A DNA stretch of 64,000 nt from assembly GCA_040285855.1 (NCBI GenBank), contig JAUFOQ010000006.1, positions 2,232,001 through 2,296,000 on the forward strand, read 5' to 3'. This stretch comes from Eukaryota sp. GEM-RC1. Its lineage: Eukaryota. Positions 21,325 to 64,000 of the stretch are shown in pieces. A program made the translations under genes and the position numbers. Within the stretch, counting starts at the first letter, position 1. Each line of letters opens with the position of its first letter. The notes under the pieces were generated by a model. That model searched no databases. It saw only the letters and a list, made by a program, of their open reading frames with translations, and was not told the DNA's origin.

Positions 21325-21326
21325 TA

Positions 21327-25405: not shown

Positions 25406-27427
25406 TTATGGACTGAATCGGAATTGACTTTGAAGTCTTTCAATTTTGATGGAAGCTGTATTTGATTTGTCTTGAAGATCTTCAGCTTCTACATGTAATA
25501 TTCCATCTGAATCAATGATCATTGTGGTAGATATCTGGGCCTCTCCTGCTGGAAGTGGAGGTAGATTACTGATCCTGAAGCGTGCAAGAAATGTATTTAG
25601 AGACACAACCGAGGCCTCACCTTGATACACATTGATAGTAGTTGATGTTTGATAGTCGGCAGTAGTAACGTAAGTATCATTGAACATACAAGGAACACTG
25701 GAATGCCTAGGAATGATGACACTCATGGTACCAACTTCATTGGTTTCGGATTTAGATTTGATACTTATACCCAAACTATGAGGAGTAACATCATGAAGAA
25801 CGTGATGGAAATATGCAGCAGCACCAGCGGCTACGGATTGGTCAGGATTGAGAGTTTTTCTTACTTTACCAGGAAACTTAAGTTCAAGCATTTCTTGAAC
25901 CTTTCTCAAACGAGAAGATCCTCCTACAAGTTGGACGTAGTCGATGGCAAAAGATTGAAGACGGAGGGATTGAAGAAGTTCCTCAATAATCGATAAGCAT
26001 TTGGTAATGTAAGGGGCACAAATAGCATCAAAACGGTCTTTAGTTAAGACAAGTTCAAGATCATTTCCAGAAGCAAAGTTCTCAACTTCTATTTCAGCCT
26101 CATCTTTAGTCGTTAGGGCTTTCTTTGCTTTCTCTACCGCAAAACGCAATAAGACTTTTCTTCTTTTCAGTTGGTAAGGAGTAACAGTTATTGTCAGTAA
26201 TCCAGTTTTTCATAACATGGTCTACTATGTCTTGATCGATATTTGCCCCACCTAAGTTTGTAGAGCCATGAGTTCCAATGACAGTAATGTCATCACTTTT
26301 AATATCTACAATAGATACATCAAAGGTACCACCACCAAAATCAAATACGAGAACTCGCTTGCCGACTGTCGAAGGATCTTCTTGTTTTAGAGATAGAGCA
26401 GCAGCAGTTGGTTCGTTGATTAGGGTGATTTCCTCAAAGCCGGCAATTTCAGCAGCTGTTTGTGTTGCTTGACGTTGATCATCATTGAAATATGCAGGTA
26501 CAGTAATGACAGCCTTGGTGATGTTAGTCTGTCCCAGAGCATTGATAGCGTTAGTTCTGATGTGAGACAAGACTCTCGCACTGATTTCTTCGGATCTATA
26601 TGTTTGGTTATTCACTCTAATACCAGTAAATCCATCACTTAGTTCTACAATTCTGAAAGGATACCTGGATTTCATTTGTTGAACAACTTCATCATTAAAA
26701 CGTCGTCCAATAAATCGCTTAATCTCAAAAAAAGTTTTATCAGGGTGTTTCTTCATAGTATCTCGAGCATCAACACCGACGACACAATTCTGGGATGCGA
26801 AGGAGACAATAGATGGAACAAGTCTTTCAGCTGAGTCGAAATCTGTCAGAACTTCTGTGATGTGAGAAGTGAAACTGCTCTCAGATTCTCGTTTTTGACG
26901 GTATATAGCGGCACAAGAGTTTGTTGTTCCAAGGTCGATCCCAAGGACAATGGATGAAGACATTTGAGAATTTGGCCGTGTATTGGTGAAGGATGAACTA
27001 GTCTCGTTTGGTGAAGTATTGACGGAAACAATAGGGGAAGTACCAGGAGTTTCTATTTGTTGGTTGTTCGCTGATGAGCTGGACTGATGATGGTTGTAAA
27101 TGTTACGTCTTGTATTGTTTCTGGGTCTCTTTGAGTTGGGGCGACGATGACGACGAGTTTTTGGGCCCCTGGCATCTTCAACTTTAATATAGTTCTCCCC
27201 CCATTTCTGACAATTCCAATGAGATTTGATAGATTCACCTACTTCGACAGAAGGTACAGAAATGATAGCGTATCCAGGCATGTTAGGAACATGGCGAAAC
27301 ATCATGACATCACAATCGGGAAAGAAATGAAGCCTTTCCAGTAGCTCAGATACAGTGAACCAATGAGGAAGATTGCCTAAAATCAGACTGAAGATACACA
27401 CGAACCAATGTAGATGTTGGGGATCAT
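25406..27427 (-). CDS. hsp70: RRM-Hsp70 fusion protein (lidless); intron 27377-27405; frameshift near 26160
   Basis: Spliced start MIPNIYIGNLP (RNP2-like), GYAIISV (RNP1-like); then GIDLGTTNSC, DFGGGTFDVS, LVGGSSR and SBD-beta; ends QFRFSP. Confidence 0.85.
27377..27405 (-). other. Predicted 29-nt spliceosomal intron
   Basis: GTTCGTGTGTATCTTCAGTCTGATTTTAG; splicing creates IYIGNLP; same position and length in the paralog. Confidence 0.8.
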
Positions 27428-27431
27428 GTTA

Positions 27432-29675
27432 TACAGAAATTTCTAAAGATCTTGCTAATTACCTCCAACAGATGGTTTGTTTGAAAGTTATTCCTCCAAT
27501 TGAATTGACTGCTGCTCAACTTATTGCTTTAGTAAAACCAGGTAACGGAATTAAGCCTGATCGAATCCGTCCAATTGCAGTTGGAGAATCAATTTCTCGT
27601 TTATTCGCATCAACTGTGTTTAATCGAGTGGTCGATAAAGCGGGTCGCTTTTTGTCTCCATTTCAATTTCGAATTAAGACAATTTACGGGGCTTCTGTTG
27701 CTGCCTTAACATCAGATTTGTTTTTCAATTCACATGATGATAATTCCATTTTAAATCTTGATTTTAAAAATGCCTTTAATTCAGTTAGTTGTAAATCTGT
27801 TTTTGCTGCTATTGAAAACGACTCTCCTGAGTTGATGTCCTACTTTTATTTATTTTATGGAAAACCAAGCGATTTAATTTATGATTCATATTCATTGAAA
27901 TCTATGTCTGGTGTTAAACAAGGAGATCCTCTTGGTCCTCTTTTTCTTTTGTTTGGTCATTCATGAAGCGCTTTTGTGTATTTTAAACAAATACCCAGAC
28001 CTTAAGATAGTTGGTTATATCGATGATATTTCTATTATTGGCCCCCTTGAATTGTTAAAAAGGTCGCTGTGGAAGTGGCTGATATTTATGAAACATTGGG
28101 TTTATCTCTGAACCCAGACAAATGTTTATTAATTGGTAGATCTACACAAGAATTATTTATTAATGGAGTGCAGATTCCATTTATCAATTATGTTGAAGAC
28201 GCTTTTCGTTTTCTAGGATGTTGGCTTGGGAATGTTCCTAAAATTTCTCAAGAATTATCTAATTGTTTGGACAAAATTGGTTCAGAACTCAACACAATTT
28301 CTTCATAAGATATTGAAACACATAACAAAGTTTTCTATTGTAAAAATTTGCTACTCCGGAAAAATCACACATCTTTTGAGATCTACTGCTCCTTTAATCA
28401 CTCTGAACTTGTGTAGATCTTTTAACGAGTTGAGGATTAATTTGTTTGCTTCATTGTTAGAAGTTGATTCAACGTTACTTAGAAGTCATTTGTTTACTTC
28501 TGCTCATTTTGGTGGTATTGGTTTTATCAAATCTTCAATTCTTTGCAAATCTGCTTTTTTAGGCGGTAGAAAAAATTCGTCTTTGAATTTGTTAATCGGT
28601 TTCCTAATGATATTTCCCTTATTAACCCCAATTCATGTAAATCTTTATTTGACTTAAACGAAGCGTTAATCAAATAACCTTTTGACGTTTGGTCTCAGTG
28701 TTTCCCAGAATCTGTGTCTGAAATACCTGAAAGATCTTTGACTAATCTTCAGTTCTGTCTGAAAAATTACAACAGAAACTCACAAATATTTTTTGAAAGC
28801 TTGTTCGAAAAACATCCCGCTTTTGCAAATTTCTTAATGGATGTTTCCAATATCTCTCCTTCATGTCTGATTACACAAATCCCTCAAGTTTACGGTCTTC
28901 TTCTTGATGATAACTCTTGGTCATTACACATGCGTTTACGGTCATATATTTGGCCTGATAACCTTCCACATAATTTGAAATGCCAATGTGGGCAATCTGT
29001 AACACCTACAGATTTATTAAATTGTAACCGTTTTATTTCTTTTAGAAGTAAGGTTCATGATTCAGTAAGGGATCAATTATATTGTATGTGTAAATCTTAT
29101 GGAATAGTTTCCTTTTAGAACCAGTTCTGACTGATTTGTTTGGTGGTACGGGTATTGACATATCGTTTGAAAATAGCCGTGGTGATGTCATATATCCTGG
29201 TCTCGATGGATCATTGATTATTGCTGATGTTATGTCTATCGACGTTTGTAATGGTTCCAACAAGAAACTTGCTAAATCCAATGCTAACAACCCTCTGTTG
29301 TTTGGTGAAAAATTTAAAAAAGAAAAATTTTGTGCTAAATTGAAATTATTGAATTCGGTTTCATACTCGAATTACGTGTTGTACCCTTTTGTGTTTTCAC
29401 TGTACGGTTCTTTAGGTGAATCTGCCACTTCACTACTTGAAATCTTTGTAAAGATTGTAAAAGAAAAAACATCTATGACTTTTGATCTTAGATTTTGGAA
29501 AAATCGAATCGTGTTTGCTATCTTTAAAGGTATGGTGACTTCTGTATCTAGTGCTTTATTATCTCTTATTATGAAGATAAGATAGGTGAATTTTTTTTCA
29601 GTTGGGTAATCTGGACTTTGAGGATATTGATTATTAGATGTATGTCCACTGTAGTGTTGTTGTCAATAAAAACTT
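27432..29675 (+). mobile_element. 5'-truncated, degenerate CRE-like LINE (second family)
   Basis: RIRPIAVGE, DFKNAFN, GVKQGDPLGP, YIDD, CQCG...LLNC, RGDVIY...ADV, WKNRIVFAIFKG; several stops and frameshifts. Confidence 0.88.
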
Positions 29676-29861
29676 GATCCATAAAAAAATATTGGATCAT
29701 TATATTTTATTTGTAAGGATTAAGTTGTAACTTATGAATATAGAAGTATCACAGAAAATCAACCATCTTTATGGCAGAAAATGCCATACGCGTATGGCCG
29801 TATGGCGCGTATGGTATTATGGCACATAACGCTGGATAATTATGTTAACCTACTACTACTA

Positions 29862-30441
29862 CACTGGTTTGTCTAATTGGTCTCACTGAGACTAATATGC
29901 AAGGAAGTTTTCATCATCAATTTTAGAATTAGTCTCACTGAGACTATTTATCTGATGAGACTAATTCATAAGGTGAGCCTAATTTCAAGACTACTTTACC
30001 ATTGCTTATTACCATTCATTTCGAAAAACTATTGATCATTGATACCAGTCCCATAAAAACACTCAGAATATTTTCCATTATGTTCTTCAAAAACAAGTCA
30101 CATTTGAGTGATGTTTAACTGCTCAAACAGAGTCCACGTCTAACTACAGCTTATCTAATACGTAATACCATCAGAATCCCAATTATTTTCGTCGGAAATA
30201 CTAAAAGCAGGGTTGTGAGGTCGAGGGATGCGTGCTTAAACGAAACCTGCAACGATCGGTCATGAAGAGACAAGAGCGTAGTCCTCAAAGCTAGGTCATA
30301 GGAAAAACAAAAATTAATAGAAATATACACTTAGACGGAGTTTATTTGAATTATAGTCTCACTGACAAAATTCAAAGGCCAATTTTAGAATTGATCTCAC
30401 TGAGACTAAATTGCTGATGAGACTAATTAGACAAACCAGTG
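29862..30441. mobile_element. MITE, second copy of 5726-6322
   Basis: TIR CACTGGTTTGTCTAATT; TA TSD; full-length similarity to 5726-6322. Confidence 0.88.
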
Positions 30442-30451
30442 TAGTACTGTA

Positions 30452-31045: not shown

Positions 31046-31259
31046 ACAAGATAGTTCACGATTTGTTGTAATAGAGAAATCGAAATTTCTCATTTCTAGT
31101 AAATTTAGAACACTAATGAAAGTACTTCTATAGTTTTGTATTGTTCCAAGAAAAATACAATTATCACAAAGTTGTATAAGAACATTATAACTATATTCGG
31201 TACTCAATAAGGTAACCTTCCTACAAAACCATGAAATTGTAAAAACAGACAAATAATAC

Positions 31260-31358
31260 TGATATCGATATGGTATGGGGAAAGAATGGGGGAAGGTAAA
31301 AGGTGTTTATAAAGTGAAATAACTGACTACGTAACCATACTAATACCTTTGGCTAACA
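31260..31358. mobile_element. 99-bp insertion, candidate solo LTR
   Basis: TG...CA ends with ATAC duplicated; absent from the duplicate site at ~49935. Confidence 0.6.
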
Positions 31359-31794
31359 ATACTAAGACTAAATCCAAACGACTTCATCACAACCCTGTAA
31401 AAGATTACGTTTTTCAACATTAAGCTTCACACCAAACTTGTACAAGTTCTCAATTAATCGAGAGAAATAGAAAGGCATATTCCGACATATAAAAAACACT
31501 ATGATGTGCTACTGTTGACCAGGAATTTTCTGTGTCTAGTGTCTCAGACTTTTATATGTATTTTTGTGCCCTCCATCGATAAACTATTTTTAAATGTTAT
31601 TTAACAAAGACTGTCAGTCAATTTGACTCGACTTGAAATATACAGTAGTCGACTCGACTCTGCTTTGATATCTCATGAGTAGACTCGACTAAACTCACTT
31701 GGTTCTAGTTGTTGGACGTACAAAACACTGAACATAATAACTTATCAATCAGAACCAGGTACATAGCTATTATCAAGTAAAATCAAAAATTAGA

Positions 31795-33585
31795 CTATAA
31801 TCTACCAGAAAGACGAACAAAAGGGACATTTGGATTGTCTGTAGAGTGCAAATCGATACCAGCATCAAGGTCAGATACAGAAACATTACAGTTCAGTTTT
31901 GTTTTAGACCCATGACAAATTTGAACACTCAATGTATCCTCAGGACACATCCTTAAATTAAAAGTAAACTTTTCTTTTTCTTGAATTCACGAAATGTAGG
32001 GGTTTGCGTGTGCTGAAGATCGTCATGAGTTAGGACAAATAGAATAGATATATCTGCTGTACAAACAAAATGATTCAAAGGTTCTGTGTAGACGACAAAC
32101 TCAGCTTCATCACACAGATCAGGTTTCTGGTTTTTGAATCATTTTCAACTGGTTGGTCCATTATAATAACTGGAATCCTCTTAAAAACCCCATTTTGACT
32201 CTCAGCAATGTTAGTAGGGAGTAAACTCTGGTTGGTCGGTGCACAATCATGTTCATGACAAGCGTTTTGGCGAAAACTTGTACCACACGAAATTTGACTT
32301 GTACATGTGTGAGAATGTGTGCCAGTTTCTTCTATAGGTGTTCCAGAAACGATTAATTGAGTTTGTTCGGTTTTCTCTTCATGTGGTTCAGCTCCAGTAT
32401 GTGTTAAAACAACATTTTGAGGTCTCAGGTGTTTAACATTTGACGGATCTTTCCATCGTAGTCCTCCAAGAGCAACATCAGTGTTAGGATCCAGTATACA
32501 AGCCAAAGGTGCTTTAAAAGCCGATCGCATCCGTTCTCTAACTGAATGAAGAGCTGCTAACCTTCCAACTGGAACAACTTTGGTAACAAATTGTGACTGT
32601 ACATATTTGGCTTGTTCCTCAAGCAGCTTAACAAAGTTCTCTCGAAATGCCTCCAATTTCCCAGAAAGATCTTTCAAGAAACTGTCAAGTACAGATGGTG
32701 GAACATCTTCCTCAAAGTCACCATTTGGATAAAAGTCTTCTACCAAAACTGACATCCTAGTTTTAGTTTTAGCTTTATTACATGCCAAAAGTAATTTCAT
32801 CTTGGATTTTCATTCATTGTGGCACGGATTTCTTCATCAATTTTAGTTAAGCAGTACTCATACAAAGCTTGGTCAACTTGAACAGCACCCATCCACCACT
32901 CTTCAGAATGAATGATATTAATGTCAAATCGTTGATGGAGAAAGACAACAGCTTTGGTAAGTAACTGACCAACATCTACAATGACGACGGTTTCAAGTTT
33001 AGAGGGTGCATGGGCTTTAAAGAGATAAGAAGCTACAAGAGCTTCCAGAGTAGGGACAACAGTGATATCAGGATAGTCAAGGTTATGGAATGTATCAAGA
33101 AGAACATTTTGATGTTGTACAGGTAGACTTTGAGGAAGAACCAATGATGATATGTCAAAAGGGGAGTTGATGCAATGATTCAGTTCAAGTATAATGTGTT
33201 CTACAAGAGGAAGAAGGAGTTCTGTTTGTGTGAGATTTTTACAAACACTGTTCACATTTACGGAGAAGACAAGACCGTCATTGATTTGGCTGACATTTCC
33301 CATAAGGAAAGAAGTAAAAGGAAGATGTAAGGGTTTAGGGGAAGATTCTTCTGTGACTTCAGTGGGGACAATGTGTGTAGCAGACACAAAACAGTTTTTG
33401 GCATGCTTCTTGACTTTGGATTCGGCATTTTGAGCTGTGAAAAAAGACCCCAGTTCTTTAACAACGACATTAGAAAGGAACATCGCATCGGTACTTGTTT
33501 GTAAACTAGTATCTCGATTATCCACGTCATTTCTCACCGCGAGGACGATGCCGTAGGATCCCAGATCTAAAGAAACATGATGCAT
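31795..33585 (-). CDS. Divergent Hsp70/Hsp110-like NBD plus unrelated C-terminal region (frameshifted; possibly a pseudogene)
   Basis: VSLDLGSYGIVLAV, TLEALVASY, VIVDVGQ, MGAVQVDQALYEY, KLLLACNKAK and VVPVGRLAAL align in order to Hsp70-superfamily NBD motifs. Confidence 0.65.
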
Positions 33586-33630
33586 TTAAGAATGATGAAA
33601 TTTGTAATAGAAATTCACAGTCTTCACTAC

Positions 33631-35212
33631 ATGTCTTCATCCTTTATTCTTGGGATCGATCTTGGAACAACAAACTCTTGTGTTGCATTTTATCGTCACA
33701 AGCGAGAAACTGAGAGCAGTCACACACCTCACATCACAGAAGTTCTGACGGATTTCCTGTCTTCGGAAAGACTTGTTCCATCTATTGTCTCCTTCGCATC
33801 CCAGAATTGTGTCGTTGGTGTTGATGCTCGTGATACTATGAAGAAACATCCAGATAAGATTGTGTATGAAGTCAAACGTTTCATTGGACGACGTTTTAAT
33901 GATGAAGTTGTTCAACAAATGAAAACCAGGTATCCTTTCAGAATTGTAGAACTAAGTGATGGATTCACTGGTATTAGAGTGAATAACCAAACATACCGTC
34001 CCGAAGAGATCAGTGCGAGAGTCTTATCTCACATCAGAACTAACGCTATCAATGCTCTGGGACAGACTAACATCACCAAGGCTGTCATTACTGTACCTGC
34101 ATATTTCAATGATGATCAACGTCAAGCAACAAAGAGGGCTGCATATATTGCCGGCTTTGAGGAAATCACCCTAATCAACGAACCAACTGCTGCTGCTCTA
34201 TCCCTAAAACAAGAAGATCCTTCGACAATCGGCAAGCGAGTTCTCGTATTTGATTTTTGGTGGTGGTACCTTTGATGTATCTATTGTAGATATTAAAAGT
34301 GATGACATTACTGTCATTGGAACTCATGGTTCTACCAACTTAGGTGGGGCAAACATCGATCAAGAAATAATAGACCATGTTATGAAAAACTGGACTACTG
34401 ACAATAACTGTTACTCCTTACCAACTGAAAAGAAGAAAGTCTTATTGCGTTTTGCGGTAGAGAAAGCAAAGAAAGCCCTAACGACTAAAGATGAGTCTGA
34501 AATAGAAGTTGAGAACTTTGCTTCTGGAAATGATCTTGAACTTGTCTTAACTAAACAACGTTTTGATGCTATTTGTGCTCCTTACATTACCAGATGCTTA
34601 TCTATCATTGAGGAACTTCTTCAATCCCTCCGTCTTCAATCTTCTGCCATCGACTACGTTCAACTTGTAGGAGGATCTTCTCGTTTGAGAAAGGTTCAAG
34701 AAATGCTTGAACTTAAGTTTCCTGGTAAGCTCAGAAAAACTCTAAACCCTGATCAATCCGTAGCTGCTGGTGCCGCTGCCTATTTCCATCACGTTCTTTA
34801 TGATGTTACTCCTCATAGCTTGGGCACTGATATCAAATCTAAATCAAGAACGAAAGAAGTTGGCACTATGAGTGTTATCATCCCTAGGCATTCCAGAATT
34901 CCTTGCAAGTTCACTGAAACTTACTACACTTCATGTGACTTTCAAACCACACTTACCATTGGTGTTTTTCAAGGTGAAGCCACGATTGTGTCTCTAAACA
35001 CATTTCTTGGACGCTTTGAGATCAGTAATCTACCTGTTCTTCCAGCAGGAGAAGCCAAAGTATCAACTACAATGATCATTGATTCAGATGGAATATTGCA
35101 TGTTGATGTTGAAGATCTTCAAAACAAATCAAATACAGCTTCAATCAAAATTGAAAAGCTTCAAAGTCAGTTCCGGTTTAGTCAACGTCTTGATGAAGTG
35201 TCTCGAACTTAG
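33631..35212 (+). CDS. hsp70: Lidless Hsp70-like protein, no N-terminal extension; frameshift in the T-run near 34255
   Basis: Canonical NBD motifs and SBD-beta; intact duplicate at 52212-53792. Confidence 0.9.
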
Positions 35213-35310
35213 TTATAACTTATATGCTAATCCATTTGGTTTTAATAAATGAAAATATAAAAATAAATTTGCTCATCCAGCCACTAGCAGTAAGAAAAAG
35301 AAACTTTTTT

Positions 35311-36170
35311 CTGTACCTAATATGGTACCCTTCCTACAAAGCTACAAAATGAAGCTGTATGAAATTGTAAAAACAAACAAAAATAATATTAAGACTAAAT
35401 CTAAACGACTTCCTTTTCATCTGGTAAAAGATTAAGTTACTCAACAATAACTTTCACACCAAACTTGTACAATTTCCCAACTGATGGAGAGAAATAGAAA
35501 AGCATATTAAGATATATTGAAAACACAATACGGTTTTTCAATCAGCTTTTCTAATACTAACACTTGTTTTCTTTACACAGTTCTTGGAATTCATTGAAAA
35601 ATAGACTACCAGCAGGACTAATCGATCCAAAAAGATAACCAGCAAAAGGTCAAAACACAAATATGAAATATGGGTTTCGATTTAACTATTCTACTTGAAA
35701 GTCAGAATTGGATTGTTTGAGTTTTTCAACATCTGTTGACTGATTAAAAGAACAAGCTAACATCCTTCTAACACCAAAATTTGTTACAAACATCTACTAT
35801 GGTATAATCCATTAATGATTGACTCGATTTAAGCCATGAAGTACGGAGGTCTTGCTCACTCTAAAGTTGAACCAGTTTTGAATCACCTTTTACAAAATGA
35901 ATTTACGGGTCAAGAAAAAGTGTGCTTTAATCATGAAATAACAAGCATCACGTACACCATCATGAATAACTGAACGTAGATGAATAAAATAACGACAATT
36001 AATTAAATGGCGAATAAGAGTACTAGTTCCACAAGAGCAAGTTGAATAGTTTAATCAATTTGCAGGCCAAATAGCCAAACGAAGACTCATATTGATCAAC
36101 CAAGCTTCATCAGATAAATGTAATCCAAACGCCTTAGGATTTTGAGAAATACATCAAGAAGGTCCACCAT
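35311..36170 (-). mobile_element. Degenerate 3' fragment of CRE-like LINE (third family)
   Basis: Minus strand reads FGLHLSDEAWLINMSLRLAIWP...CSCG...HLINC...HDGVRD; 3' part similar to 31200-31510. Confidence 0.7.
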
Positions 36171-36529
36171 TTCATAGATCAAATAAAAGAGTCAATGTAA
36201 TTTGCAGTTTACATTCTCACATACTACGGCAAATACGGAGAGGCAAAGGAGAAATTGAAGGGCTGGATGCAGCCTTCGTCTGGGGTGTAACGGTGACAGG
36301 AGACGTTTGCTTTGGATGGGTAATCTTACTCTCGTTCCCTGGAAGGCATCATCATCAGACTTTGCGTTACATAGATTCGTTTACGTTTATATTTGATACA
36401 TACTTGTTTGTTTTACTAGATTCTGACCATTTATCAACTAGTCTGTTAAAGGGTTAAACTGGCTGAGCACTTGAGTGTGACCTGCTGCTAAAGGTCTTTG
36501 AAAAAAACTAGAAACTGGCGCCAGTGAGC

Positions 36530-36636
36530 TCCAAGTCAAGTCGAACGACTGGACTTAAAAATTCTCAAGTTACTTGGAATTGACTTGATTCAAGTCGATC
36601 AACGTGTGCCTTGAGTCAAGTCGTTTGACAACACTA
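36530..36636. mobile_element. Orphan hAT-like end
   Basis: CAAGTC subterminal repeats ending GTTTGACAACACTA, similar to the TIR at 30452. Confidence 0.45.
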
Positions 36637-36639
36637 ATA

Positions 36640-39600
36640 TGAAAACATCCTGAACTTCCTGTTAGAGTTTAGCTTCTGGTCTCGCGAAATTAGACAACAG
36701 GAAGACAAGGTGTTACAATGATGAGTTAGGAAATCCTATCCACTCATATGACATCTGCCGTACTGCCGTCTTGGAGATTGACCCTACTGATGTATGTGAA
36801 TTTATCAACCAAAACATGGTTTATACTTGGAGACGTACAGGGGAATTATCTTCTAGTGGAACAGATGATGAAGCCGTTTGGCGTTATCTTTGTACGAAAC
36901 CTAGAACAACACCGTGAATGCTGCTACTAAGAGCTTTCAAAGCATCAATTTCACGAAATCCAATGTGGAGCCTCCTGAGAAAATCGCAAATTTCCTGAAT
37001 GCGGCTATAAAAGCCATTCAACGATCCACCGCCATCAAAGGTATCGGGGAAGAGAGGATCGCAATGCCATCAGATCTGATTGCTGAACACTTGAACCAAA
37101 TTGTTGATTGCGACAACAACATCAACCTCCTCGAAGACCTAAAGATAAAGTGGCTTCGTGTGCTTGAACGTAAACCTGAGCTGCTCGAAGAGTTTGTTAA
37201 TGACTTGAAAGAAGTATACCTCTTTTGGGCCAGGAATAATAGTGTTCAGACCGACGAACGAAGCTCTAGATCAAGTAAACCTTCCAAGAATGCTTTGAAA
37301 AGGCTAACTCGAACGAAAATGAACGTTCCGATGAACGTCCCTCTCGACGAGAAGAAAGAGCTTGCTTTAACTGCAACAAGAAAGGTCATTTGTCTAAGGA
37401 TTGCAAAGCCCTTCGCAGAAGCAGTGAGTCGGATGACAAGTCCAGAAAACGTAGGTCTGGTGACGGTAGTCGTAGTAAATATTCTAAATATTCTAAGAAT
37501 AAAACCGATAATTATGTCTTGCAAATTAGAACAACAGTCAACGCTACACCAGATTAATATATCAATCCCCTGGCAGTTCTCAACACACAAGAGGATAAGG
37601 ATGATACATCTAGAAAGATTTATAGTTTACAGAACTTAGGGATCAAAGACAAAGGTAACGGGCCTTTAGTTCTACGATTGTGGATTAACAAAGTTCCAGT
37701 GACAGGTGAATTTGATACAGCAGCTACATGTTCTGTGATCACTCAGGACCTTGTTCGTCACTGTGGAATGGAAATTATCGACGACAGTATTGATTACATT
37801 TCAGCGAATAATATTCGTGCAACTTCCTTAGGTAGTGCAATTGGTGTTCTGACGTTCAACGTCGGAAGTGTGGCCAACCAGATTCACAACAGGCATTCTC
37901 TTCCCGTAATTCCAGGTACCGGAACATTACTGATTGGACGAGATTTGCAAAATGATCTAGGGCTCCTGAAAGACGATGGTTTGATCATAAGATTAGACAA
38001 AGAACATCGCACAATCTTAAACTCTGAGAGTGAATTTGATGAGAGAATTTCGATACCATCAAAACCCATCTTGGATCAATCAATTTCGATTGCTTCCATC
38101 AATGATGAGTGCGGCAAGTCTCAACCCTCTAATCAATCTTTGATTGACTTTGAGAAGAAAGTTGACGATTCTGGCTGTAAGATACTACTAGATGATCCTA
38201 CACGACGACAGGCATTGCTTACCCTATTAAGCGAATGAGACGCCCTATTCTCACTCCTTGATTTCGCTTATTCTCACTCCTTCTGTTTATTTTTTTGTGA
38301 AGTTACATCTTCTCCTATGAACTACGAACCTGGATCATTTATTTTGGCAGCTCCTTCTTTCGATGATGATGCGTAAAGAATGTCCTGCAAAGAAAGGGAT
38401 GCCTTGTTGTAAGAGACTGCAACAGTTGGTTAAAGATTGCCAACCTCTAACTGTTGAGATGTTTCATCATCATTGGCATCTGGAAAGACGCATTGAAGAT
38501 GCTCAACGTGTAGGCCAACCTAGATTAGCCAGAATTCTTCCACCTAACCCAGCTTAGGCTAGAGGAAGGCCAAGACACTCAGAAGTAGCGAACAGCAATC
38601 ACCAGGATAGAGTTGTTGCTCAACAACGAACTCAATATAAATGTGGCCTCTGCAGAACTCCAGGTCATACTAGAAGAAGTTGTCCACTAAAGGGACAGTT
38701 CCAACGTATGATTGAACAAGGAACTAATGAGTAGTTGTATTAGGTTTATTTGATACGAAATAAAAGAAAATAAGACGTCATAGCGGAAGAAAAACTATGG
38801 TGAAGAAATACAGAGAAGGAGTGAGAATAAGCGAAATCAAGGAGTGAGAATAGGGCGTCTCTAAGCGAATACTCCGAAGTCTTCTCTGAAGAAATACATC
38901 CTGACGGCATTGATTGTCCTCCGATGTCTATTCCCTTCGACGACGAGAGCACAGTTGTATATAGGCCTCCTCGACGGTTGAACCCTATGAAACAGAAGGT
39001 TGCCGAAGAGATCTTTAATGAATTAATACTGCAAGGATGGGCCATACCATCGACAGGAACATTCAGCAGTCCCATTGTCCTGGTGATGTACAACGACCAC
39101 CGCAAGCCCCGTTTAACTGGAGATTTCAGTGGGCCCAATGGGATAAATGCTAATACGAAGCCTGTGAAGCTGAATCTTCCCAGGATCTGTGATATACTAG
39201 AGTTCCTTTCGAATGCAAACTTCATCGGAACAGTTGATCTTCCAAAAGCTTTTTGGCAACTCAAAGTAGCTGAAGAAGACGTCGACAAGACAACTGTGTC
39301 TATACCTGGTATGTCAATTAGTTTCAAACGGACATGTTTTGGTTTGAAGAATGTACCTGCAATCTTCCAAAACATTATGATGGATATATTCAACATTGAG
39401 GGTGTTTTTATTTACATTGACGATGTAATAATCATAGGGAACACATTTGAAGAATATATGGATCGATTACGACAAGTACTAGATTGCGCCAGACGCTTTC
39501 GTGTACGTTTTGGATTACGTAAATGTTATTTCGTAACTTGTAATCACAAAATCAAGATTCTAGGCAGCGACTTTGTGAACAAAACCCGTTGCATCGATGA

Positions 39601-42023: not shown

Positions 42024-42114
42024 TGTCTCATACAGGTAACATCATTGAAAAAATCACAAAGGTCATCAACAATTAAAAGAATTTTGTCTACATAATGCTT
42101 TTAAAATATCAAAA

Positions 42115-42570
42115 TTAATACCAAAAGGTCCGGGAGCTTTCCCAGATGGCAACGTTAAGATCAAATCCAAAACTCATCAGACAAAATACGATTTTCTCTC
42201 CAATATGTTGGAGAAAGTGGAACTTCCGTAACACATATTCTATTTTTAAAAAATGTATTTGTATTTTGTTCAATCCTTGTATTTTCCAGGTATGGTTGGA
42301 TCTATCAAGATTCAGCTCTTCCACATGAATGCTATCCTCAATAGACTCATACGCTGGATAAGTCCACAAGACATCATCGTATTTATTACTGACTACAACA
42401 CGTAGCGCTTGGCGAAGTTCGCTCCTTGGCATTCTGTCATCCACGATCGCATACCTAAAAGAAGACACTGATATCTGTTGAGGAACGTTTCTGCATGTAT
42501 TTTCCCTCAAGTTGGACGATTTACTGGGCGATTGGTTAGATACAGATGATGGGAATACGTATCGTTATCA
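42115..42570 (-). pseudogene. Unidentified coding fragment
   Basis: Protein-like 131-aa ORF, duplicated at 60726-61136; no motif recognised. Confidence 0.3.
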
Positions 42571-46646: not shown

Positions 46647-47159
46647 TATATGTGAAGCGGAATTCAACTTACAATTTGTATTTTTTTTGATTTCCTTAAG
46701 CGATTATACAGCAGAAGTGTGTAATGAATCGATTCTTTTGTTTATCTTTTTCTTAGGCAACTTCGATAAATACTAGTTTTGTCACGGGAACTACTATTTT
46801 AACTTTATTCGATAATTATATATACATGAACATGTATATGTACCTTCGATAATTGAATGATAATTGAAAATGTGAAAGGTACATATATAGATTATTCAAA
46901 CAACGGGTATTACATGGTCTTCATTCAATCCTTCTAGCTCAGTTGCAAAGGAGTAAGAGCCAAAAAAGTGGTTTAGTAAGACCTGGCCCGACTACAAAAA
47001 TGCCTACATAATGGTCGCTCTCTTTGTAAGAGTAGAAACCAACCTTCTATTAGTAGTCTAGAATTTGAACAACTCATGTGTCAAACGTATTTGTGGAGTA
47101 GCAAACAATTTCTCCAACATCATTTATCAGTCCTTACTACATTTCCCAAGACATGTTTC

Positions 47160-47930
47160 GAGTTTTCCTCGTTTTGTTGAATTGTCTTCAAGTATTGGTT
47201 TGTCAATTAATTTTCAAAAATGTCTTGTCATTGGACGTTCTTCAGTTGATTTGAATTTTGGGGAATCTTCCATTCCGTTTGTCAATTATTCAGATGAATG
47301 TGTCAAGTTTTTGGGCAATTATACTGGTATTGTTGACAAAATTAAGGAGACTTTATCACATAAGAATAATTGTATCTTTCAGCAGCTTAACCAAATCGTT
47401 GATCTAGATGTAGGCAAACAAGTGTCTTTTGCTATGCTGCAAGTTTGCTTTGGTGGTAAAATTAATCACTTTTTACGTGGTTTACCGCCTGAACTAACTC
47501 TCGAATGATCTCGTAATTTTAATTCATTGCGCACAAATTTTGTTAGTTATCTGGTTGGTAACAAAGACTCTTCACTTCCTTCTCATTGTTTTACTTCTAC
47601 TTCTTTTGGTGGTATTGGTTTCACGAAAGCTAAATACATGCGTGATGGTGCCTTTTGGGGTCTTTAAAGAATTTTTTGTTTGGCTTTCAGAATCGTTATC
47701 CTGAGTTATGGAAAACGAAAGGTTTTTTACTTCACTCACCTTGTGCATGGTTAATTAGTTTTCAAAATTTAATTGATAGTCTTGACTCCAATTTGTGGTC
47801 AGATGTATTTCCTGTTGGGGTAACAGAAATTCAGCAGAGAAGCATTTTCTCTTTGCCTTTGTGTGTTCGCAAGTTACAGAAGAAGTTTGTTTTGTTTCAC
47901 GAAAGCTTGGACTTTAAAAACCGTATTAAG
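47160..47930 (+). mobile_element. Internal fragment of CRE-like LINE (same family as 21327-24328)
   Basis: VGKQVSFAMLQVCFGGKINHFLRGLPPELT closely matches ORF 22390-23028. Confidence 0.85.
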
Positions 47931-50368: not shown

Positions 50369-52160
50369 CTATAATCTACCAGAAAGACGAACAAAAGGGA
50401 CATTTGGATTGTCTGTAGAGTGCAAATCGATACCAGCATCAAGGTCAGATACAGAAACATTACAGTTCAGTTTTGTTTTAGACCCATGACAAATTTGAAC
50501 ACTCAATGTATCCTCAGGACACATCCTTAAATTAAAAGTAAACTTTTCTTTTTTCTTGAATTCACGAAATGTACGGGTTTGCGTGTGCTGAAGATCGTCA
50601 TGAGTTAGGACAAATAGAATAGATATATCTGCTGTACAAACAAAATGATTCAAAGGTTCTGTGTAGACGACAAACTCAGCTTCATCACACAGATCAGGTT
50701 TCTGGTTTTTTGAATCATGTTCAACTGGTTGGTCCATTATAATAACTGGAATCCTCTTAAAAACCCCATTTTGACTCTCAGCAATGTTAGTAGGGAGTAA
50801 ACTCTGGTTGGTCGGTGCACAATCATGTTCATGACAAGCGTTTTGGCGAAAACTTGTACCACACGAAATTTGACTTGTACATGTGTGAGAATGTGTGCCA
50901 GTTTCTTCTATAGGTGTTCCAGAAACGATTAATTGAGTTTGTTCGGTTTTCTCTTCATGTGGTTCAGCTCCAGTATGTGTTAAAACTACATTTTGAGGTC
51001 TCAGGTGTTTAACATTTGACGGATCTTTCCATCGTAGTCCTCCAAGAGCAACATCAGTGTTAGGATCCAGTATACAAGCCAAAGGTGCTTTAAAAGCCGA
51101 TCGCATCCGTTCTCTAACTGAATGAAGAGCTGCTAACCTTCCAACTGGAACAACTTTGGTAACAAATTGTGACTGTACATATTTGGCTTGTTCCTCAAGC
51201 AGCTTAACAAAGTTCTCTCGAAATGCCTCCAATTTCCCAGAAAGATCTTTCAAGAAACTGTCAAGTACAGATGGTGGAACATCTTCCTCAAAGTCACCAT
51301 TTGGATAAAAGTCTTCTACCAAAACTGACATCCTAGTTTTAGTTTTAGCTTTATTACATGCCAAAAGTAATTTCATCTTGGATTTTCATTCATTGTGGCA
51401 CGGATTTCTTCATCAATTTTAGTTAAGCAGTACTCATACAAAGCTTGGTCAACTTGAACAGCACCCATCCACCACTCTTCAGAATGAATGGCATTAATGT
51501 CAAATCGTTGATGGAGAAAGACAACAGCTTTGGTAAGTAACTGACCAACATCTACAATGACGACGGTTTCAAGTTTAGAGGGTTCAGGGGCTTTAAAGAG
51601 ATAAGAAGCTACAAGAGCTTCCAGAGTAGGGACAACAGTGATATCAGGATAGTCAAGGTTATGGAATGTATCAAGAAGAACATTTTGATGTTGTACAGGT
51701 AGACTTTGAGGAAGAACCAATGATGATATGTCAAAAGGGGAGTTGATGCAATGATTCAGTTCAAGTATAATGTGTTCTACAAGAGGAAGAAGGAGTTCTG
51801 TTTGTGTGAGATTTTTACAAACACTGTTCACATTTACGGAGAAGACAAGACCGTCATTGATTTGGCTGACATTTCCCATAAGAAAAGAAGTAAAAGGAAG
51901 ATGTAAGGGTTTAGGGGAAGATTCTTCTGTGACTTCAGTGGGGACAATGTGTGTAACAGACACAAAACAGTTTTTGGCATGCTTCTTGACTTTGGATTCG
52001 GCATTTTGAGCTGTGAAAAAGACCCCAGTTCTTTAACAACGACATTAGAAAGGAACATCGCATCGGTACTTGTTTGTAAACTAGTATCTCGATTATCCAC
52101 GTCATTTCTCACCGCGAGGACGATGCCGTAGGATCCCAGATCTAAAGAAACATGATGCAT
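50369..52160 (-). CDS. Divergent Hsp70/Hsp110-like gene, copy 2 (frameshifts near 52015 and 51380)
   Basis: Duplicate of 31795-33585. Confidence 0.65.
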
Positions 52161-52211
52161 TTAAGAATGATGAAATTTGTAATAGAAATTCACAGCATGA
52201 GTCTTCACTAC

Positions 52212-53792
52212 ATGTCTTCATCCTTTATTCTTGGGATCGATCTTGGAACAACAAACTCTTGTGTTGCATTTTATCGTCACAAGCGAGAAACTGAGAGCAG
52301 TCACACACCTCACATCACAGAAGTTCTGACGGATTTCCTGTCTTCGGAAAGACTTGTTCCATCTATTGTCTTCTTCGCATCCCAGAATTGTGTCGTTGGT
52401 GTTGATGCTCGTGATACTATGAAGAAACATCCAGATAAGATTGTGTATGAAGTCAAACGTTTCATTGGACGACGTTTTAATGATGAAGTTGTTCAACAAA
52501 TGAAAACCAGGTATCCTTTCAGAATTGTAGAACTAAGTGATGGATTCACTGGTATTAGAGTGAATAACCAAACATACCGTCCCGAAGAGATCAGTGCGAG
52601 AGTCTTATCTCACATCAGAACTAACGCTATCAATGCTCTGGGACAGACTAACATCACCAAGGCTGTCATTACTGTACCTGCATATTTCAATGATGATCAA
52701 CGTCAAGCAACAAAGAGGGCTGCATATATTGCCGGCTTTGAGGAAATCACCCTAATCAACGAACCAACTGCTGCTGCTCTATCTCTAAAACAAGAAGATC
52801 CTTCGACAATCGGCAAGCGAGTTCTCGTATTTGATTTTGGTGGTGGTACCTTTGATGTATCTATTGTAGATATTAAAAGCGATGACATTACTGTCATTGG
52901 AACTCATGGTTCTACCAACTTAGGTGGGGCAAACATCGATCAAGAAATAATAAACAATGTTAAGAAAAACTGGACTACTGACAATAACCGTTATTCCTTA
53001 CCAACTGAAAAGAAGAAAGTCTTATTGCGTTTTGCGGTAGAGAAAGCAAAGAAAGCCCTAACAACTAGAAATAAGGCTGAAATAGAAGTTGAGAACTTTG
53101 CTTCTGGAAATGATCTTGAACTTGTCCTAACTAAAGACCGTTTTGATGCTATTTGTGCCCCTTACATTACCAGATGCTTATCGATTATTGAGGAACTTCT
53201 TCAATCCCTCCGTCTTCAATCTTTTGCCATCGACTACGTTCAACTTGTAGGAGGATCTTCTCGTATAAGAAAGGTTCAAGAAATGCTTGAACTTAAGTTT
53301 CCTGGTAAGCTCAGAAAAACTCTAAACCCTGATCAATCCGTAGCCGCTGGTGCCGCTGCCTATTTCCATCACGTTCTTTATGATGTTACTCCTCATAGCT
53401 TGGGCACTGATATCAAATCTAAATCAAGAACGAAAGAAGTTGGCACTATGAGTGTTATCATCCCTAGGCATTCCAGAATTCCTTGCAAGTTCACTGAAAC
53501 TTACTACACTTCAAGTGACTATCAAACCACACTTACCATTGGTGTTTTTCAAGGTGAAGCCACGATTGTGTCTCTAAACACATTTCTTGGACGCTTTGAG
53601 ATCAGTAATCTACCTGTTCTTCCAGCAGGAGAAGCCAAAGTATCAACTACAATGATCATTGATTCAGATGGAATATTGCATGTTGATGTTGAAGATCTTC
53701 AAAACAAATCAAATACAGCTTCAATCAAAATTGAAAAGCTTCAAAGTCAGTTCCGGTTTAGTCAACGTCTTGATGAAGTGTCTCGAACTTAG
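52212..53792 (+). CDS. hsp70: Lidless Hsp70-like protein, intact ORF (526 aa from MSSSFILG)
   Basis: GIDLGTTNSC, EVKRFIG, TVPAYFND, NEPTAAA, DFGGGTFDVS, LVGGSSRI, DVTPHSLG, IDSDGILHV; no lid or EEVD. Confidence 0.93.
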   Translation: MSSSFILGIDLGTTNSCVAFYRHKRETESSHTPHITEVLTDFLSSERLVPSIVFFASQNCVVGVDARDTMKKHPDKIVYEVKRFIGRRFNDEVVQQMKTRYPFRIVELSDGFTGIRVNNQTYRPEEISARVLSHIRTNAINALGQTNITKAVITVPAYFNDDQRQATKRAAYIAGFEEITLINEPTAAALSLKQEDPSTIGKRVLVFDFGGGTFDVSIVDIKSDDITVIGTHGSTNLGGANIDQEIINNVKKNWTTDNNRYSLPTEKKKVLLRFAVEKAKKALTTRNKAEIEVENFASGNDLELVLTKDRFDAICAPYITRCLSIIEELLQSLRLQSFAIDYVQLVGGSSRIRKVQEMLELKFPGKLRKTLNPDQSVAAGAAAYFHHVLYDVTPHSLGTDIKSKSRTKEVGTMSVIIPRHSRIPCKFTETYYTSSDYQTTLTIGVFQGEATIVSLNTFLGRFEISNLPVLPAGEAKVSTTMIIDSDGILHVDVEDLQNKSNTASIKIEKLQSQFRFSQRLDEVSRT

Positions 53793-53890
53793 TTATAACT
53801 TATATGCTAATCCATTTGGTTTTAATAAATGAAAATATAAAAATAAATTTGCTCATCTAGCCACTAGCAGTAAGAAAAAGAAACTTTTTT

Positions 53891-62614: not shown

Positions 62615-62896
62615 AATCTTATACTGCACCGTTATCGTTGAGTGCTCGTTGAAGAAGATTAGCAGACTGATATGTTTGTATTTTACTTTGTATTTTGGCG
62701 TATTTTTGTATTTTTCAAATGAAAACTCGTGTATTGTACAAGTATGTATGACATCAAATAACAGCGGCACGTACAGTACATGTACCAAATATAATTACAT
62801 TGATTTAAGATAAATTACAAAACATTCATTTACAAGTATATAACATTAATAACATAAGGAAGTATGAAGAAAAATACTAACAAAAAGTGACTCAAG

Positions 62897-64000
62897 TTAT
62901 GGACTGAATCAGAATTGACTTTGAAGTCTTTCAATTTTGATGGAAGCTGTATTTGATTTGTCTTGAAGATCTTCAGCTTCTACATGTAATATTCCATCTG
63001 AATCAATGATCATTGTGGTAGATATTTGGGCTTCTCCTGCTGGAAGGGGGAGGTAGATTACTGATCCTGAAGCGTGCAAGAAATGTATTTAGAGACACAA
63101 CCGAGGCCTCACCTTGATACACGTTGATAGTAGTTGATGTTTGATAGTCGGCAGTAGTAACGTAAGTATCATTGAACATACAAGGAACACTGGAATGCCT
63201 AGGAATGATGACACTCATGGTACCAACTTCATTGGTTTCGGATTTAGATTTGATACTAATACCCAAACTATGAGGAGTTACATCATGAAGAACGTGATTA
63301 AAGTAGGCAGATGCACCAGCAGCCACGGATTGGTCAGGATTGAGAGTTTTTCTTACTTTACCAGGAAACTTAAGTTCAAGTATTTCTTGAACCTTTCTCA
63401 AACGAGAAGATCCTCCTACAAGTTGGACGTAGTCGATGGCAGAAGATTGAAGACGGAGGGATTGAAGAAGTTCCTCAATGATAGATAAGCATCTGGTAAA
63501 TGTAAGGGGCACAAATAGCATCAAAACGGTCTTTAGTTAAGACAAGTTCAAGATCATTTCCAGAAGCAAAGTTCTCAACTTCTATTTCAGACTCATCTTT
63601 AGTCGTTAGGGCTTTCTTTGCTTTCTCTACCGCAAAACGCAATAAGACTTTCTTCTTTTCAGTTGGTAAGGAGTAACAGTTATTGTCAGTAGTCCAGTTT
63701 TTCATAACATGGTCTATTATTTCTTGATCGATGTTTGCCCCACCTAAGTTGGTAGAGCCATGAGTTCCAATGACAGTAATGTCATCGCTTTTAATATCTA
63801 CAATAGATACATCAAAGGTACCACCACCAAAATCAAATACGAGAACTCGCTTGCCGATTGTCGAAGGATCTTCTTGTTTTAGGGATAGAGCAGCAGCAGT
63901 TGGTTCGTTGATTAGGGTGATTTCCTCAAAGCCGGCAATATATGCAGCCCTCTTTGTTGCTTGACGTTGATCATCATTGAAATATGCAGGTACAGTAATG
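62897..64000 (-). CDS. hsp70: 3' half of Hsp70-like gene (duplicate of 44325-46646); 5' part outside the window
   Basis: Near-identical to 44325-45430; frameshifts near 63500 and 63047. Confidence 0.88.

Follow-up and report, generated by a model that had tools for sequence, protein, structure and literature searches.

The 64,000-nucleotide stretch of Eukaryota sp. GEM-RC1 DNA analyzed here (the window) encodes Hsp70s without a lid that are specific to Skoliomonas, a free-living metamonad genus; the host is a soda-lake flagellate. At two sites a bare lidless Hsp70 lies head to head with a partner gene of the Hsp70 superfamily that has lost its catalytic residues. The strongest point, read from gene order and unnoticed in the original prediction, is that the bare Hsp70 and its degenerate partner are neighbors in a second species. 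Our preferred reading, held tentatively and at a little under even chance, is that the two constitute a private Hsp70-plus-regulator module, serving specialized clients rather than bulk folding.

Gene content and the duplicated block

The following Hsp70-superfamily features were located in the window.

9209..10104, minus strand: truncated Hsp70 relic (Pfam HSP70), ending within NBD lobe II; 75% nucleotide identity to the array copies
25406..27427, minus strand: RRM-like domain, low-complexity linker, and lidless Hsp70 (Pfam HSP70; NBD plus SBD-β)
31126..45427: duplicated block, copy 1; copy 2 is 49803-64000, 99.1% identical
31795..33585, minus strand: partner gene copy 1 (∼597 aa, read through 1-nt homopolymer breaks)
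33586..33630: AT-rich inter-ATG spacer, copy 1 (45 nt), a presumed bidirectional promoter
33631..35212, plus strand: bare lidless Hsp70 copy 1 (Pfam HSP70)
44325..46646, minus strand: RRM-like domain, ubiquitin-like domain (E = 2e-7), and lidless Hsp70 (Pfam HSP70)
50369..52160, minus strand: partner gene copy 2 (pseudo-ATPase)
52161-52211: inter-ATG spacer, copy 2 (51 nt)
52212..53792, plus strand: bare lidless Hsp70 copy 2, an unbroken 526-aa ORF (P0348; Pfam HSP70)
62897..64000, minus strand: third minus-strand Hsp70, 3′ part, cut off by the window end (Pfam HSP70)

All eight of the loci originally counted are real, six by Pfam (E values down to 1e-119) and two by structure and profile, but only five are distinct genes, because a block duplication of ∼14 kb has made three of the eight copies of three others. 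Minus-strand Hsp70s do lie at 25.4, 44.3, and 62.9 kb, and they share a 3′ flank (25275, 44206, and 62779, ∼130 nt beyond the stop), but their regular spacing mostly reflects one recent segmental duplication. In the block alignment, 31355-45427 matches 49929-64000 with 99.1% identity over 14,095 columns and a period of 18.57 kb. The 62.9-kb Hsp70 is 99.7% identical to the 44.3-kb copy; the 25.4-kb Hsp70, whose product matches P0001 except at gene-model joins, is an older paralog (95%), and the DNA upstream of it differs. The head-to-head pair is present at both predicted sites, with ATGs 45 to 51 nt apart, as is the 9.2-kb relic. This relic, the recent duplication of the block, and one more copy beyond the window agree with the birth-and-death family that had been proposed. 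The family is small, with ∼9 Hsp70 and 5 partner loci seen in GEM-RC1; the window genes are missing from the 11 GEMRC Hsp70 rows in the published paper's table.

The Hsp70 frameshifts are 1-nt homopolymer changes: in an A run near 26.15 kb (25.4-kb gene), in a T run at ∼34258 (bare Hsp70 copy 1), and in a C run near 44.48 kb (44.3-kb gene, with a TGA four codons ahead of its paralog's stop). Partner copy 2 is broken in the same way near 52020 and 51375, and the paralog P0228 is open across the break common to the partner copies. Since RIO1 and endonuclease IV, housekeeping genes in the window, carry similar changes, the frameshifts are probably assembly errors.

It could be argued that the 18.6-kb repeat is itself an artifact, with two haplotypes placed in tandem and paralogs mixed by polishing; the true copy number would then be lower, and the genes would stand. 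The 99.1% identity with many homopolymer indels would fit, as would a mosaic patch in the NBD of both plus-strand Hsp70 copies. The published skoliomonad assemblies were built from early Nanopore reads and corrected with Illumina data, and fragmented BUSCOs make up 8.9% for the GEMRC genome versus 3.0% for the transcriptome. We nevertheless regard an artifact as very unlikely: 79 substitutions are dispersed along the block, a third plus-type copy on the same contig, outside the window, has its own substitutions (P0350, P0351), and the left boundary falls inside a short dispersed repeat (found again at 35302-35529), which fits unequal crossing-over.

Anatomy and ancestry of the lidless Hsp70s

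The window Hsp70s retain the ATPase motifs and the SBD-β peptide-binding sandwich, the alignment reaching profile position ∼500, and are without the lid and the EEVD. In the four family rows that run to the end, 12 to 21 residues follow SBD-β, compared with 119 to 133 in the four canonical controls; the lid-latch arginine is absent. No lid-like ORF of at least 40 aa lies downstream of the window Hsp70s, and P0002 and P0004 end alike. The P1 loop, K71, E175, DxGGGT, and GGS are kept in six of seven aligned family rows (residue positions here and below, including T13/T14, are taken to follow bovine numbering); a kinase fusion alters the last two. The phosphate-1, K71, E175, phosphate-2, and adenosine motifs are intact in all three window rows aligned.

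The prediction of a lineage-specific family holds. Only skoliomonad proteins match above ∼40% identity (85, 67, 54, and 51%), other Hsp70s matching at ∼40% or lower, and the family forms a separate, Skoliomonas-only clade on a stem of 0.69 to 1.55 substitutions/site in two trees, built without an Ssz1 row and without the skoliomonad canonical Hsp70s, which were compared by eye. Canonical cytosolic, ER, and mitochondrial Hsp70s are present separately in these Skoliomonas species. The sequence comparisons thus support the conclusion that the window copies are not ordinary recent duplicates of the canonical cytosolic Hsp70. Placement on the mtHsp70/DnaK branch was also considered; an AU test rejected a clade of the family with two mtHsp70s (P = 0.002; quick tree, 30 rows). 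Among the best 80 of 108 viral-contig loci, relatives show 31 to 43% identity, and no viral Hsp70 was sister to the family among the nine placed in the first tree and four in the second, where the long branch limits placement.

Selection between paralogs has been purifying, with dN/dS of 0.24 to 0.31 between array types. The peptide-binding domain gave no sign of diversifying selection (0.27 to 0.31 between types), and no pairwise comparison exceeded 1. The truncated relic falls in the same range (0.28 to 0.34), dN/dS being a reflection of past selection.

Domain shuffling, another part of the prediction, is evident across the family. Two Hsp70 copies (25.4 and 44.3 kb) carry an RRM-like N terminus, the latter with a ubiquitin-like domain as well, and Skoliomonas litria has an NBD-coiled coil-kinase fusion (g6625; FPKM, 15.4). 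Both RRM-like copies have retained an RRM intron of 29 nt with GT-AG ends (27405-27377 and 46597-46569), and the RRM dN/dS is 0.38. The RRM-like N terminus has no Pfam match; the top four of its eight PDB matches are RNA-binding or RRM-type proteins at weak E values (0.44 to 1.2), its low-confidence model (pLDDT 41) places the elements in the order expected of the β-α-β-β-α-β RRM fold, and a basic linker follows.

The RRM-like domain and linker, together with the lidless NBD plus SBD-β plan, would be expected of a divergent ribosome chaperone of the Ssz1/HSPA14 type, tethered to RNA by the fusion. We consider this highly improbable: Ssz1 hydrolyzes no ATP, whereas the window Hsp70s keep all catalytic motifs, no Ssz1 chain occurs among the best 60 PDB sequence matches, and the family is multicopy and lineage restricted.

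A partner with a degenerate ATPase domain

Neither partner gene (31795-33585 and 50369-52160) has a Pfam match in the window. Structure places the partner in the Hsp70 superfamily (Atlas model, TM 0.83; Foldseek with a paralog model, E = 7e-17), and a profile search matches it to Hsp105 (E = 2e-14). Profile scores were 56.6 bits for Hsp105, 55.8 for Ssb, and 53.6 for Sse1, the match ending at position ∼360; the fold search tied Sse1 (Z = 28.4, VIA), Hsp110 (28.1), and Ssz1 (27.6). The second phosphate loop, DxG[HQE], is Hsp110-like. T13/T14, K71, E175, and GGT are lost in all five partner rows spanning them, and in four of the five an Arg replaces an adenosine-motif glycine.

The partner consists of an NBD of Hsp70/Hsp110 fold, a linker, and a C-terminal β-rich region; the P0228 model comprises an NBD (1-373), a disordered segment (375-506), and a β-rich part (507-613) with no helices beyond. 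The helical bundle that contacts Hsp70 is missing, judging by this model and by a profile match confined to the NBD. The earlier label "Hsp110-like" therefore overstates the case, because the match is limited to the ATPase domain and Hsp110 and Ssz1 are tied in the fold search. In Hsp110 the bundle holds Hsp70 open, according to the available portion of PMC4753570. Given a partner with no bundle and an Arg in the adenosine motif, sequence and model make it doubtful that it works on Hsp70 as a normal exchange factor.

By eye, S. litria and RCL each have a true Hsp110 as a separate protein. At E ≤ 1e-3 the partner has six matches among 1.84 billion representatives, one being the window's own and five named skoliomonad proteins; the sole metagenome match looks Hsp110-like by eye. 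The tail is variable: in two paralogs with near-identical NBDs it is down to scattered matches, and it differs in every paralog.

If the preferred reading of a regulated Hsp70 module is correct, the 45- to 51-nt spacer would co-express both genes, and the dead partner would dock NBD to NBD with the lidless Hsp70, in the manner of Sse1 and Hsp70. Once docked, it would tune the nucleotide state of the Hsp70 or bring clients through its variable tail. Lid loss would make client binding brief and of low affinity; the part of PMC7083937 available links lid loss in Ssz1 to low-affinity binding. RRM-like, ubiquitin-like, and kinase fusions would direct other copies to RNA-protein clients, the proteasome, or signaling.

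Linkage of the pair in a second species

In TZLM1-RC, relatives of the partner (P9112_003518, KAL0224128; 35% identity to the window gene) and of the Hsp70 (P9112_003519, KAL0224129; 54%) have consecutive tags. The chance of this adjacency is ∼5e-4 by simple arithmetic (2+2 known genes among 15,224); it concerns one locus and was read from locus tags, which do not include strand. Reading frames are intact in this deeply diverged species (P0004, P0231). The TZLM1-RC genes P9112_007303 (partner-like) and P9112_006953 (Hsp70) are not neighbors, and in GEMRC1 the tags of the named partner paralogs (_006673, _006893, _008174) do not adjoin that of any named family Hsp70. Within the window, RIO1 and its upstream ORF are also head to head, with starts ∼20 nt apart, which makes close divergent spacing unexceptional here.

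Transposable elements in the region are as follows.

27436..29600, plus strand: 5′-truncated non-LTR retrotransposon (RT plus C-terminal region); homology starts ∼10 nt from the start codon of the 25.4-kb gene
29851..30449: MITE-like element bounded by 29-nt terminal inverted repeats; another copy lies at 5715-6333
35464..36231, minus strand: non-LTR retrotransposon 3′ relic; second copy at 54029-54757
36286..41990, plus strand: Gypsy-type LTR retroelement (protease, RT, RNase H, integrase); second copy at ∼54851-60555
47050..47930, plus strand: non-LTR retrotransposon fragment

The Gypsy-type element has a 5′ LTR-like start and, near 36513, what we take to be a primer-site-like motif; no matching 3′ LTR was located. 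TE-derived DNA makes up at least 39% of 25.4-64 kb (∼43% counting two more relics) versus a repeat content of 48% for the whole published GEMRC assembly and 48 to 55% in the genomes of the two species that have the pair, so the region is not unusually TE-rich, contrary to its description as TE saturated.

These features could mean that the two genes are independent and passively linked in a repeat-rich region: a low-expression truncated Hsp70 lineage, comparable to plant Hsp70T1, and an unrelated decayed Hsp110 paralog, duplicated by retroelements, with several copies perhaps dying. Of the eight loci, three are duplicates at 99% and one is a truncated relic, a retroelement abuts the 25.4-kb ATG, and tight head-to-head spacing is common here; as far as the available parts of these sources go, plant T1 genes form tandem clusters that are scarcely transcribed (PMC10687569) and Entamoeba Hsp70s are TE linked 30% of the time (PMC2886108). 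We nonetheless think passive linkage rather unlikely, as both families persist with intact frames and adjacency in a second, deeply diverged species, the adjacency is kept despite the repeat load of these genomes, and selection has been purifying.

A defense role

The defense role originally suggested is possible but found no support: TEs are about as dense as in the genome on average, no diversifying selection was seen in the peptide-binding domain, the family is small, and the head-to-head spacing recurs at RIO1. An elaborated version seems unlikely. By analogy with paired NLRs, whose head-to-head pairs work by a sensor/helper mechanism, the dead ATPase with its fast-changing tail would sense foreign proteins or act as a decoy for them, the active lidless Hsp70 would be a co-transcribed switch, and the RRM, ubiquitin-like, and kinase fusions would be integrated baits or effectors, making an immune or signaling system on the actin/Hsp70 fold. 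Consistent with this are the head-to-head arrangement of active and dead NTPase-fold genes, the divergence of the partner tail beside a near-identical NBD in two paralogs, and the kinase fusion. Skoliomonads also have many other long-tailed, divergent Hsp70-fold genes, including intact and degenerate close neighbors (g8291/g8293 and g8656/g8660, by eye), and springtails have GBP-Hsp70 fusions. Predicted bacterial conflict systems use Hsp70s with and without a peptide-binding domain, according to the accessible part of PMC7159879. Against it, known immune or effector domains are absent from the window's copies, and the small family, the pairwise dN/dS values, and the TE density count here as well.

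Comparison with known systems

Paired NLRs with integrated domains are similar by analogy, being divergent pairs of related NTPase-fold proteins, one of them degenerate and variable, with domain fusions; the window proteins have the actin/Hsp70 fold rather than STAND, and no LRR, TIR, CC, or death domains. A literature search found no divergently transcribed pair of this kind. The available portions of reports on Entamoeba histolytica (PMC2886108) and Halicephalobus mephisto (PMC6872716) describe expansions of divergent Hsp70s, TE linked in the former and long branched in the latter, but these are much larger (31 in Entamoeba), heat induced with positive selection in Halicephalobus, and, in those portions, without a paired pseudo-ATPase. 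Plant Hsp70T1 is likewise C-terminally truncated, in lineage-specific tandem clusters, but resembles full-length cytosolic Hsp70, and dead partners and RRM or ubiquitin fusions are absent from the part of PMC10687569 available. Ssz1/HSPA14 has the same lidless plan; the window Hsp70s differ in keeping the hydrolysis residues, in being multicopy and domain fused, and in having a partner that is not a J-protein. In the Hsp110-Hsp70 pair (Sse1-Hsp70, PDB 3D2E), an atypical Hsp70-fold protein also stands beside an intact Hsp70, and Hsp105/Sse1 are the partner's best profile and fold matches, but our partner matches over the NBD only and has no exchange bundle, and the two skoliomonads noted above have a separate true Hsp110. 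With canonical cytosolic Hsp70 and BiP (HSPA1, Hsc70, Ssb, BiP) the window Hsp70s share the NBD catalytic motifs, SBD-β, the DVTP linker end, and the eukaryotic cytosol/ER-type group; they differ in 37% identity, no lid or EEVD, ∼12 fewer residues before the linker, a long private stem, and N-terminal fusions.

Few proteins are as conserved as Hsp70s, and the dead or lidless forms known so far (Hsp110, Ssz1) work in the housekeeping chaperone cycle. The array itself carries less weight: most of it comes from a single recent duplication, in a genome rich in repeats. If the preferred reading is right, a private lidless Hsp70 kept next to its own pseudo-ATPase, with swappable ends, would represent reuse of the fold as a dedicated switch in a free-living, anaerobic protist with little-studied stress and defense biology, and the intact pair of the second species offers a direct two-protein test.

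Eight Hsp70-fold loci and a recent block duplication

The DNA of the window is eukaryotic and AT-rich (GC 0.31 to 0.47); as the original prediction had it, it carries eight Hsp70-superfamily loci, six identified by Pfam HSP70 and two by their Hsp70 fold. Bare (plus-type) lidless Hsp70s lie head-to-head with a minus-strand Hsp70-fold gene, here called the partner; minus-type copies are fusions.

Hsp70-superfamily loci in the window
9209-10104 (-), truncated Hsp70 relic, Pfam HSP70
25406-27427 (-), minus-type Hsp70 with a tentatively RRM-like N-terminus, Pfam HSP70
31795-33585 (-), partner copy 1, Hsp70 fold, no Pfam match
33631-35212 (+), bare Hsp70 copy 1, Pfam HSP70
44325-46646 (-), fusion Hsp70 with ubiquitin-like domain, Pfam HSP70
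50369-52160 (-), partner copy 2, Hsp70 fold, no Pfam match
52212-53792 (+), bare Hsp70 copy 2, Pfam HSP70
62.9-64.0 kb (-), third minus Hsp70, Pfam HSP70

When the window was compared with itself, 31355-45427 and 49929-64000 proved 99.1% identical, differing by 79 substitutions and 18 gaps; the duplicated unit carries a partner gene and a bare Hsp70 together with a gypsy element and a fusion Hsp70. Since one recent block is present twice, the array as first seen consists of eight real loci but five distinct genes. The left edge of the block sits in a short repeat found again at 35302-35529, which is consistent with unequal crossing-over; that the assembly inflated the copy number is improbable. 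The 25.4- and 44.3-kb Hsp70s are 95% identical, with different upstream DNA.

Other elements are present in the window. Remains of DNA transposons and retroelements are stacked at 13.2-24.4 kb, comprising hAT remains (DUF659 and dimerisation domains), SWIM-containing and DDE_1 sequences, and, at 21284-24448 (-), a non-LTR element that is nearly complete. Inverted arms of 59 nt (38237-38295 and 38803-38861, 95% complementary, 507 nt apart, also in copy 2) break the pol of the gypsy element between its protease and RT regions. A GC-richer stretch (0.47) at 47930-49591 (+) holds two ORFs in one frame, 232 and 320 aa long, with one stop between; its end gave only a sub-threshold hAT dimerisation match.

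The lidless Hsp70s form a separate, lineage-restricted clade

In the alignment (bovine residue numbering), the Hsp70 copies retain K71 and E175 along with the phosphate-1 loop, DxGGGT, and the adenosine motif, and the SBD-β sandwich is present. Only 12 to 21 residues follow SBD-β, versus 119 to 133 in four canonical controls; the copies have no lid, no EEVD, and none of the arginine that latches the lid in canonical Hsp70. Because P0002 and P0004, family relatives from protein collections, end alike, lid truncation predates the species split.

Tree rows were hand-picked from about 85 candidates, with the partners, Hsp110, Ssz1, and skoliomonad canonical Hsp70s set aside. The family formed one clade in both trees (SH-aLRT 100), with a stem of 0.69 (LG+G4, 50 rows) or 1.55 (mixture model, 30 rows), and both placed it inside the eukaryotic cytosol/ER-type group. 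The AU test on the 30-row tree rejected a clade of the family with mitochondrial Hsp70 (p 0.002). A grouping with arthropod and plant long branches differed between models and was treated as long-branch attraction. The 32-row table of PMC11316075 has separate cytosolic, ER, and mitochondrial Hsp70s for GEMRC, and since the family is also separate in the trees, its members are not ordinary recent duplicates of canonical Hsp70.

Among the best 120 of 8000 matches, those closest to the array Hsp70 were named proteins of Eukaryota sp. GEM-RC1 (85% and 67% identity) and TZLM1-RC (54% and 51%), all others being at about 40% or less; a viral scan gave matches to the family at 31 to 43% only, among the matches listed. 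Both organisms are Skoliomonas, free-living soda-lake metamonads (PMC11316075), and TZLM1-RC is taken as S. litria because P0005, a kinase-fused family member, matches supplement row g6625 of that paper. Five collection proteins are identical letter for letter to sequence in the window. Counted from protein collections only, and thus as lower bounds, GEM-RC1 has at least about 9 family Hsp70 loci, 6 in the window and 3 outside (P0350/P0351, a third copy of the plus type located on this contig, plus GEMRC1_007337 and GEMRC1_007133), and at least 5 partner loci, 2 in the window plus GEMRC1_006673, GEMRC1_006893, and GEMRC1_008174; TZLM1-RC has at least 2 of each. No skoliomonad protein appeared among 106 matches of 1449 to 4135 aa, which is weak evidence; the search covered pieces of at least 265 aa.

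The supplement of PMC11316075 also holds many other divergent skoliomonad Hsp70-fold genes with long tails (800 to 1624 aa), and intact and degenerate genes close together (S. litria g8291/g8293, RCL g8656/g8660); RCL g2761 (FPKM 6.8), judged by eye, is similar to the partner family.

Fusions to other domains

The ubiquitin-like domain of the 44.3-kb copy scored above the cut-off (E 2e-7). The N-terminal domains of the 25.4- and 44.3-kb copies are 62% identical to each other, and both genes have a 29-nt GT-AG intron in the same place. For this domain, the top four of eight PDB matches were RNA-binding or RRM-type proteins (E 0.44 to 1.2); Pfam made no call, so we describe it only tentatively as RRM-like. 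Modelled from its sequence alone, the N-terminus with the RRM-like and ubiquitin-like domains gave a poor structure (pLDDT 41). P0005 has the architecture NBD-coiled coil-kinase and is labelled plainly cyto-hsp70 in the genome paper; its FPKM of 15.4 is the sole expression value for the family in this analysis, and cytosolic Hsp70s in S. litria have FPKM 465 and 212 (PMC11316075).

Many springtail proteins (Orchesella, Folsomia, Allacma; P0126, P0129-P0131, P0135, P0136, P0144, P0153, and others) join the GTPase domain of a guanylate-binding protein (PF02263) to Hsp70, and some of these appear to lack the lid; our literature search found no paper on them.

The partner is a predicted pseudo-ATPase

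Neither partner gene scored significantly against a profile of 113 Hsp70/DnaK hits. An Atlas model of the N-terminal half nevertheless aligns with Hsp70-family proteins at TM 0.83, and a partner profile matched Hsp105 (56.6 bits), Ssb (55.8), and Sse1 (53.6), in the NBD only. The model of the paralog P0228 (mean pLDDT 59) predicts an NBD (1-373), disorder to 506, and a β-rich domain (507-613). Foldseek with this model ranked Hsp70 NBDs first, and its fold matches to Sse1 (Z 28.4, rmsd 3.5, 348 aligned), Hsp110 (28.1), and Ssz1 (27.6) amount to a tie. The label "Hsp110-like" goes too far: the matches are confined to the NBD, and the helical bundle through which Sse1 acts on Hsp70 (PMC4753570) is missing, so the partner is not a proper Hsp110. 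T13/T14, K71, E175, and GGT are lost in all aligned partner rows, from which the protein is predicted to be a pseudo-ATPase. The tail differs in every paralog, and the C-terminal region had no usable Atlas match and no Pfam match.

A search of 1.84 billion representatives gave six matches; one is the piece from this window, and the other five are named proteins of skoliomonads. Of 146 candidates in a metagenome scan with the partner alignment, one locus was picked up (L001:4840-6732, +), an Hsp110-like gene that is rich in GC and encodes 630 aa.

Live genes or decay

All frameshifts in the Hsp70 copies are 1-nt homopolymer changes, and the break shared by the partner copies is one A fewer than in the open P0228. 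As an internal control for assembly error, the RIO1 kinase gene (3382-5041, +) and the endonuclease IV gene (AP_endonuc_2; 6513-7498, +) each appear to be frameshifted by 1 nt in a short run; the published Skoliomonas assemblies used early Nanopore reads (PMC11316075). We rejected pseudogene status on frameshifts alone, and small introns as their source. dN/dS is 0.24 to 0.31 between array types; SBD-β gives 0.27 to 0.31 when plus types are compared with minus types, and the RRM-like domain gives 0.38. Against live genes, the truncated relic too gives 0.28 to 0.34, a non-LTR element starts ∼10 nt from the ATG of the 25.4-kb copy, and the copies at 44.3 and 62.9 kb have a C-run frameshift in common and both stop four codons early at a TGA. 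The plus copies diverge in a central NBD patch, many sites of which are as in the minus copies, pointing to either gene conversion or polishing with mis-mapped reads.

Pairing of the partner with the bare Hsp70

The ATGs of the partner and the bare Hsp70 lie 45 and 51 nt apart in the two copies. The most informative result is adjacency in the second species, read from tags at one locus: the relatives P9112_003518 and P9112_003519 (35% and 54% identity) have consecutive tags and accessions. The tags of the other named paralogs of the two families are not consecutive. Closely spaced divergent starts are ordinary in this window, as RIO1 likewise begins ∼20 nt from a divergent ORF; passive linkage is unlikely. 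That ORF (2369-3415, -; ∼348 aa) has no Pfam match.

Building on the observed anatomy, lineage restriction, selection, and adjacency, we tentatively favor, at somewhat short of even chances, a module of Hsp70 plus partner. The spacer between the divergent ATGs would drive co-expression; an NBD-to-NBD heterodimer would let the dead partner tune or aim the lidless Hsp70, which may hold clients briefly and at low affinity, by analogy with lidless Ssz1 (PMC7083937); and the fusions could direct other copies to RNA-protein clients, the proteasome, or signalling. A role like that of the ribosome-associated complex, despite this analogy, is very improbable. The interpretation first offered stands as to lineage specificity and separation from ordinary duplicates; its suggestion of defence is unproven, and a defence pair is rather doubtful. 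TE density was rejected as evidence for immunity, TE-derived DNA making up at least 39% of the array interval versus 48% repeats genome-wide (PMC11316075).

Comparison with known systems

A literature search, in which the Skoliomonas papers were covered mostly in part, found no description of the family, and none of a eukaryote that pairs a lidless Hsp70 with a dead gene of the Hsp70 fold. We conclude that the Hsp70 system has a real variant here, specific to the lineage and apparently undescribed, in which a pair of genes, one active and one dead, is conserved. Hsp70 expansions and truncations as such are already known, from the TE-linked Hsp70s of Entamoeba (PMC2886108), the expanded, divergent Hsp70s of Halicephalobus (PMC6872716), the tandem truncated Hsp70T1 genes of plants, whose transcripts are scarce (PMC10687569), and the Hsp70s within predicted conflict systems of bacteria (PMC7159879).
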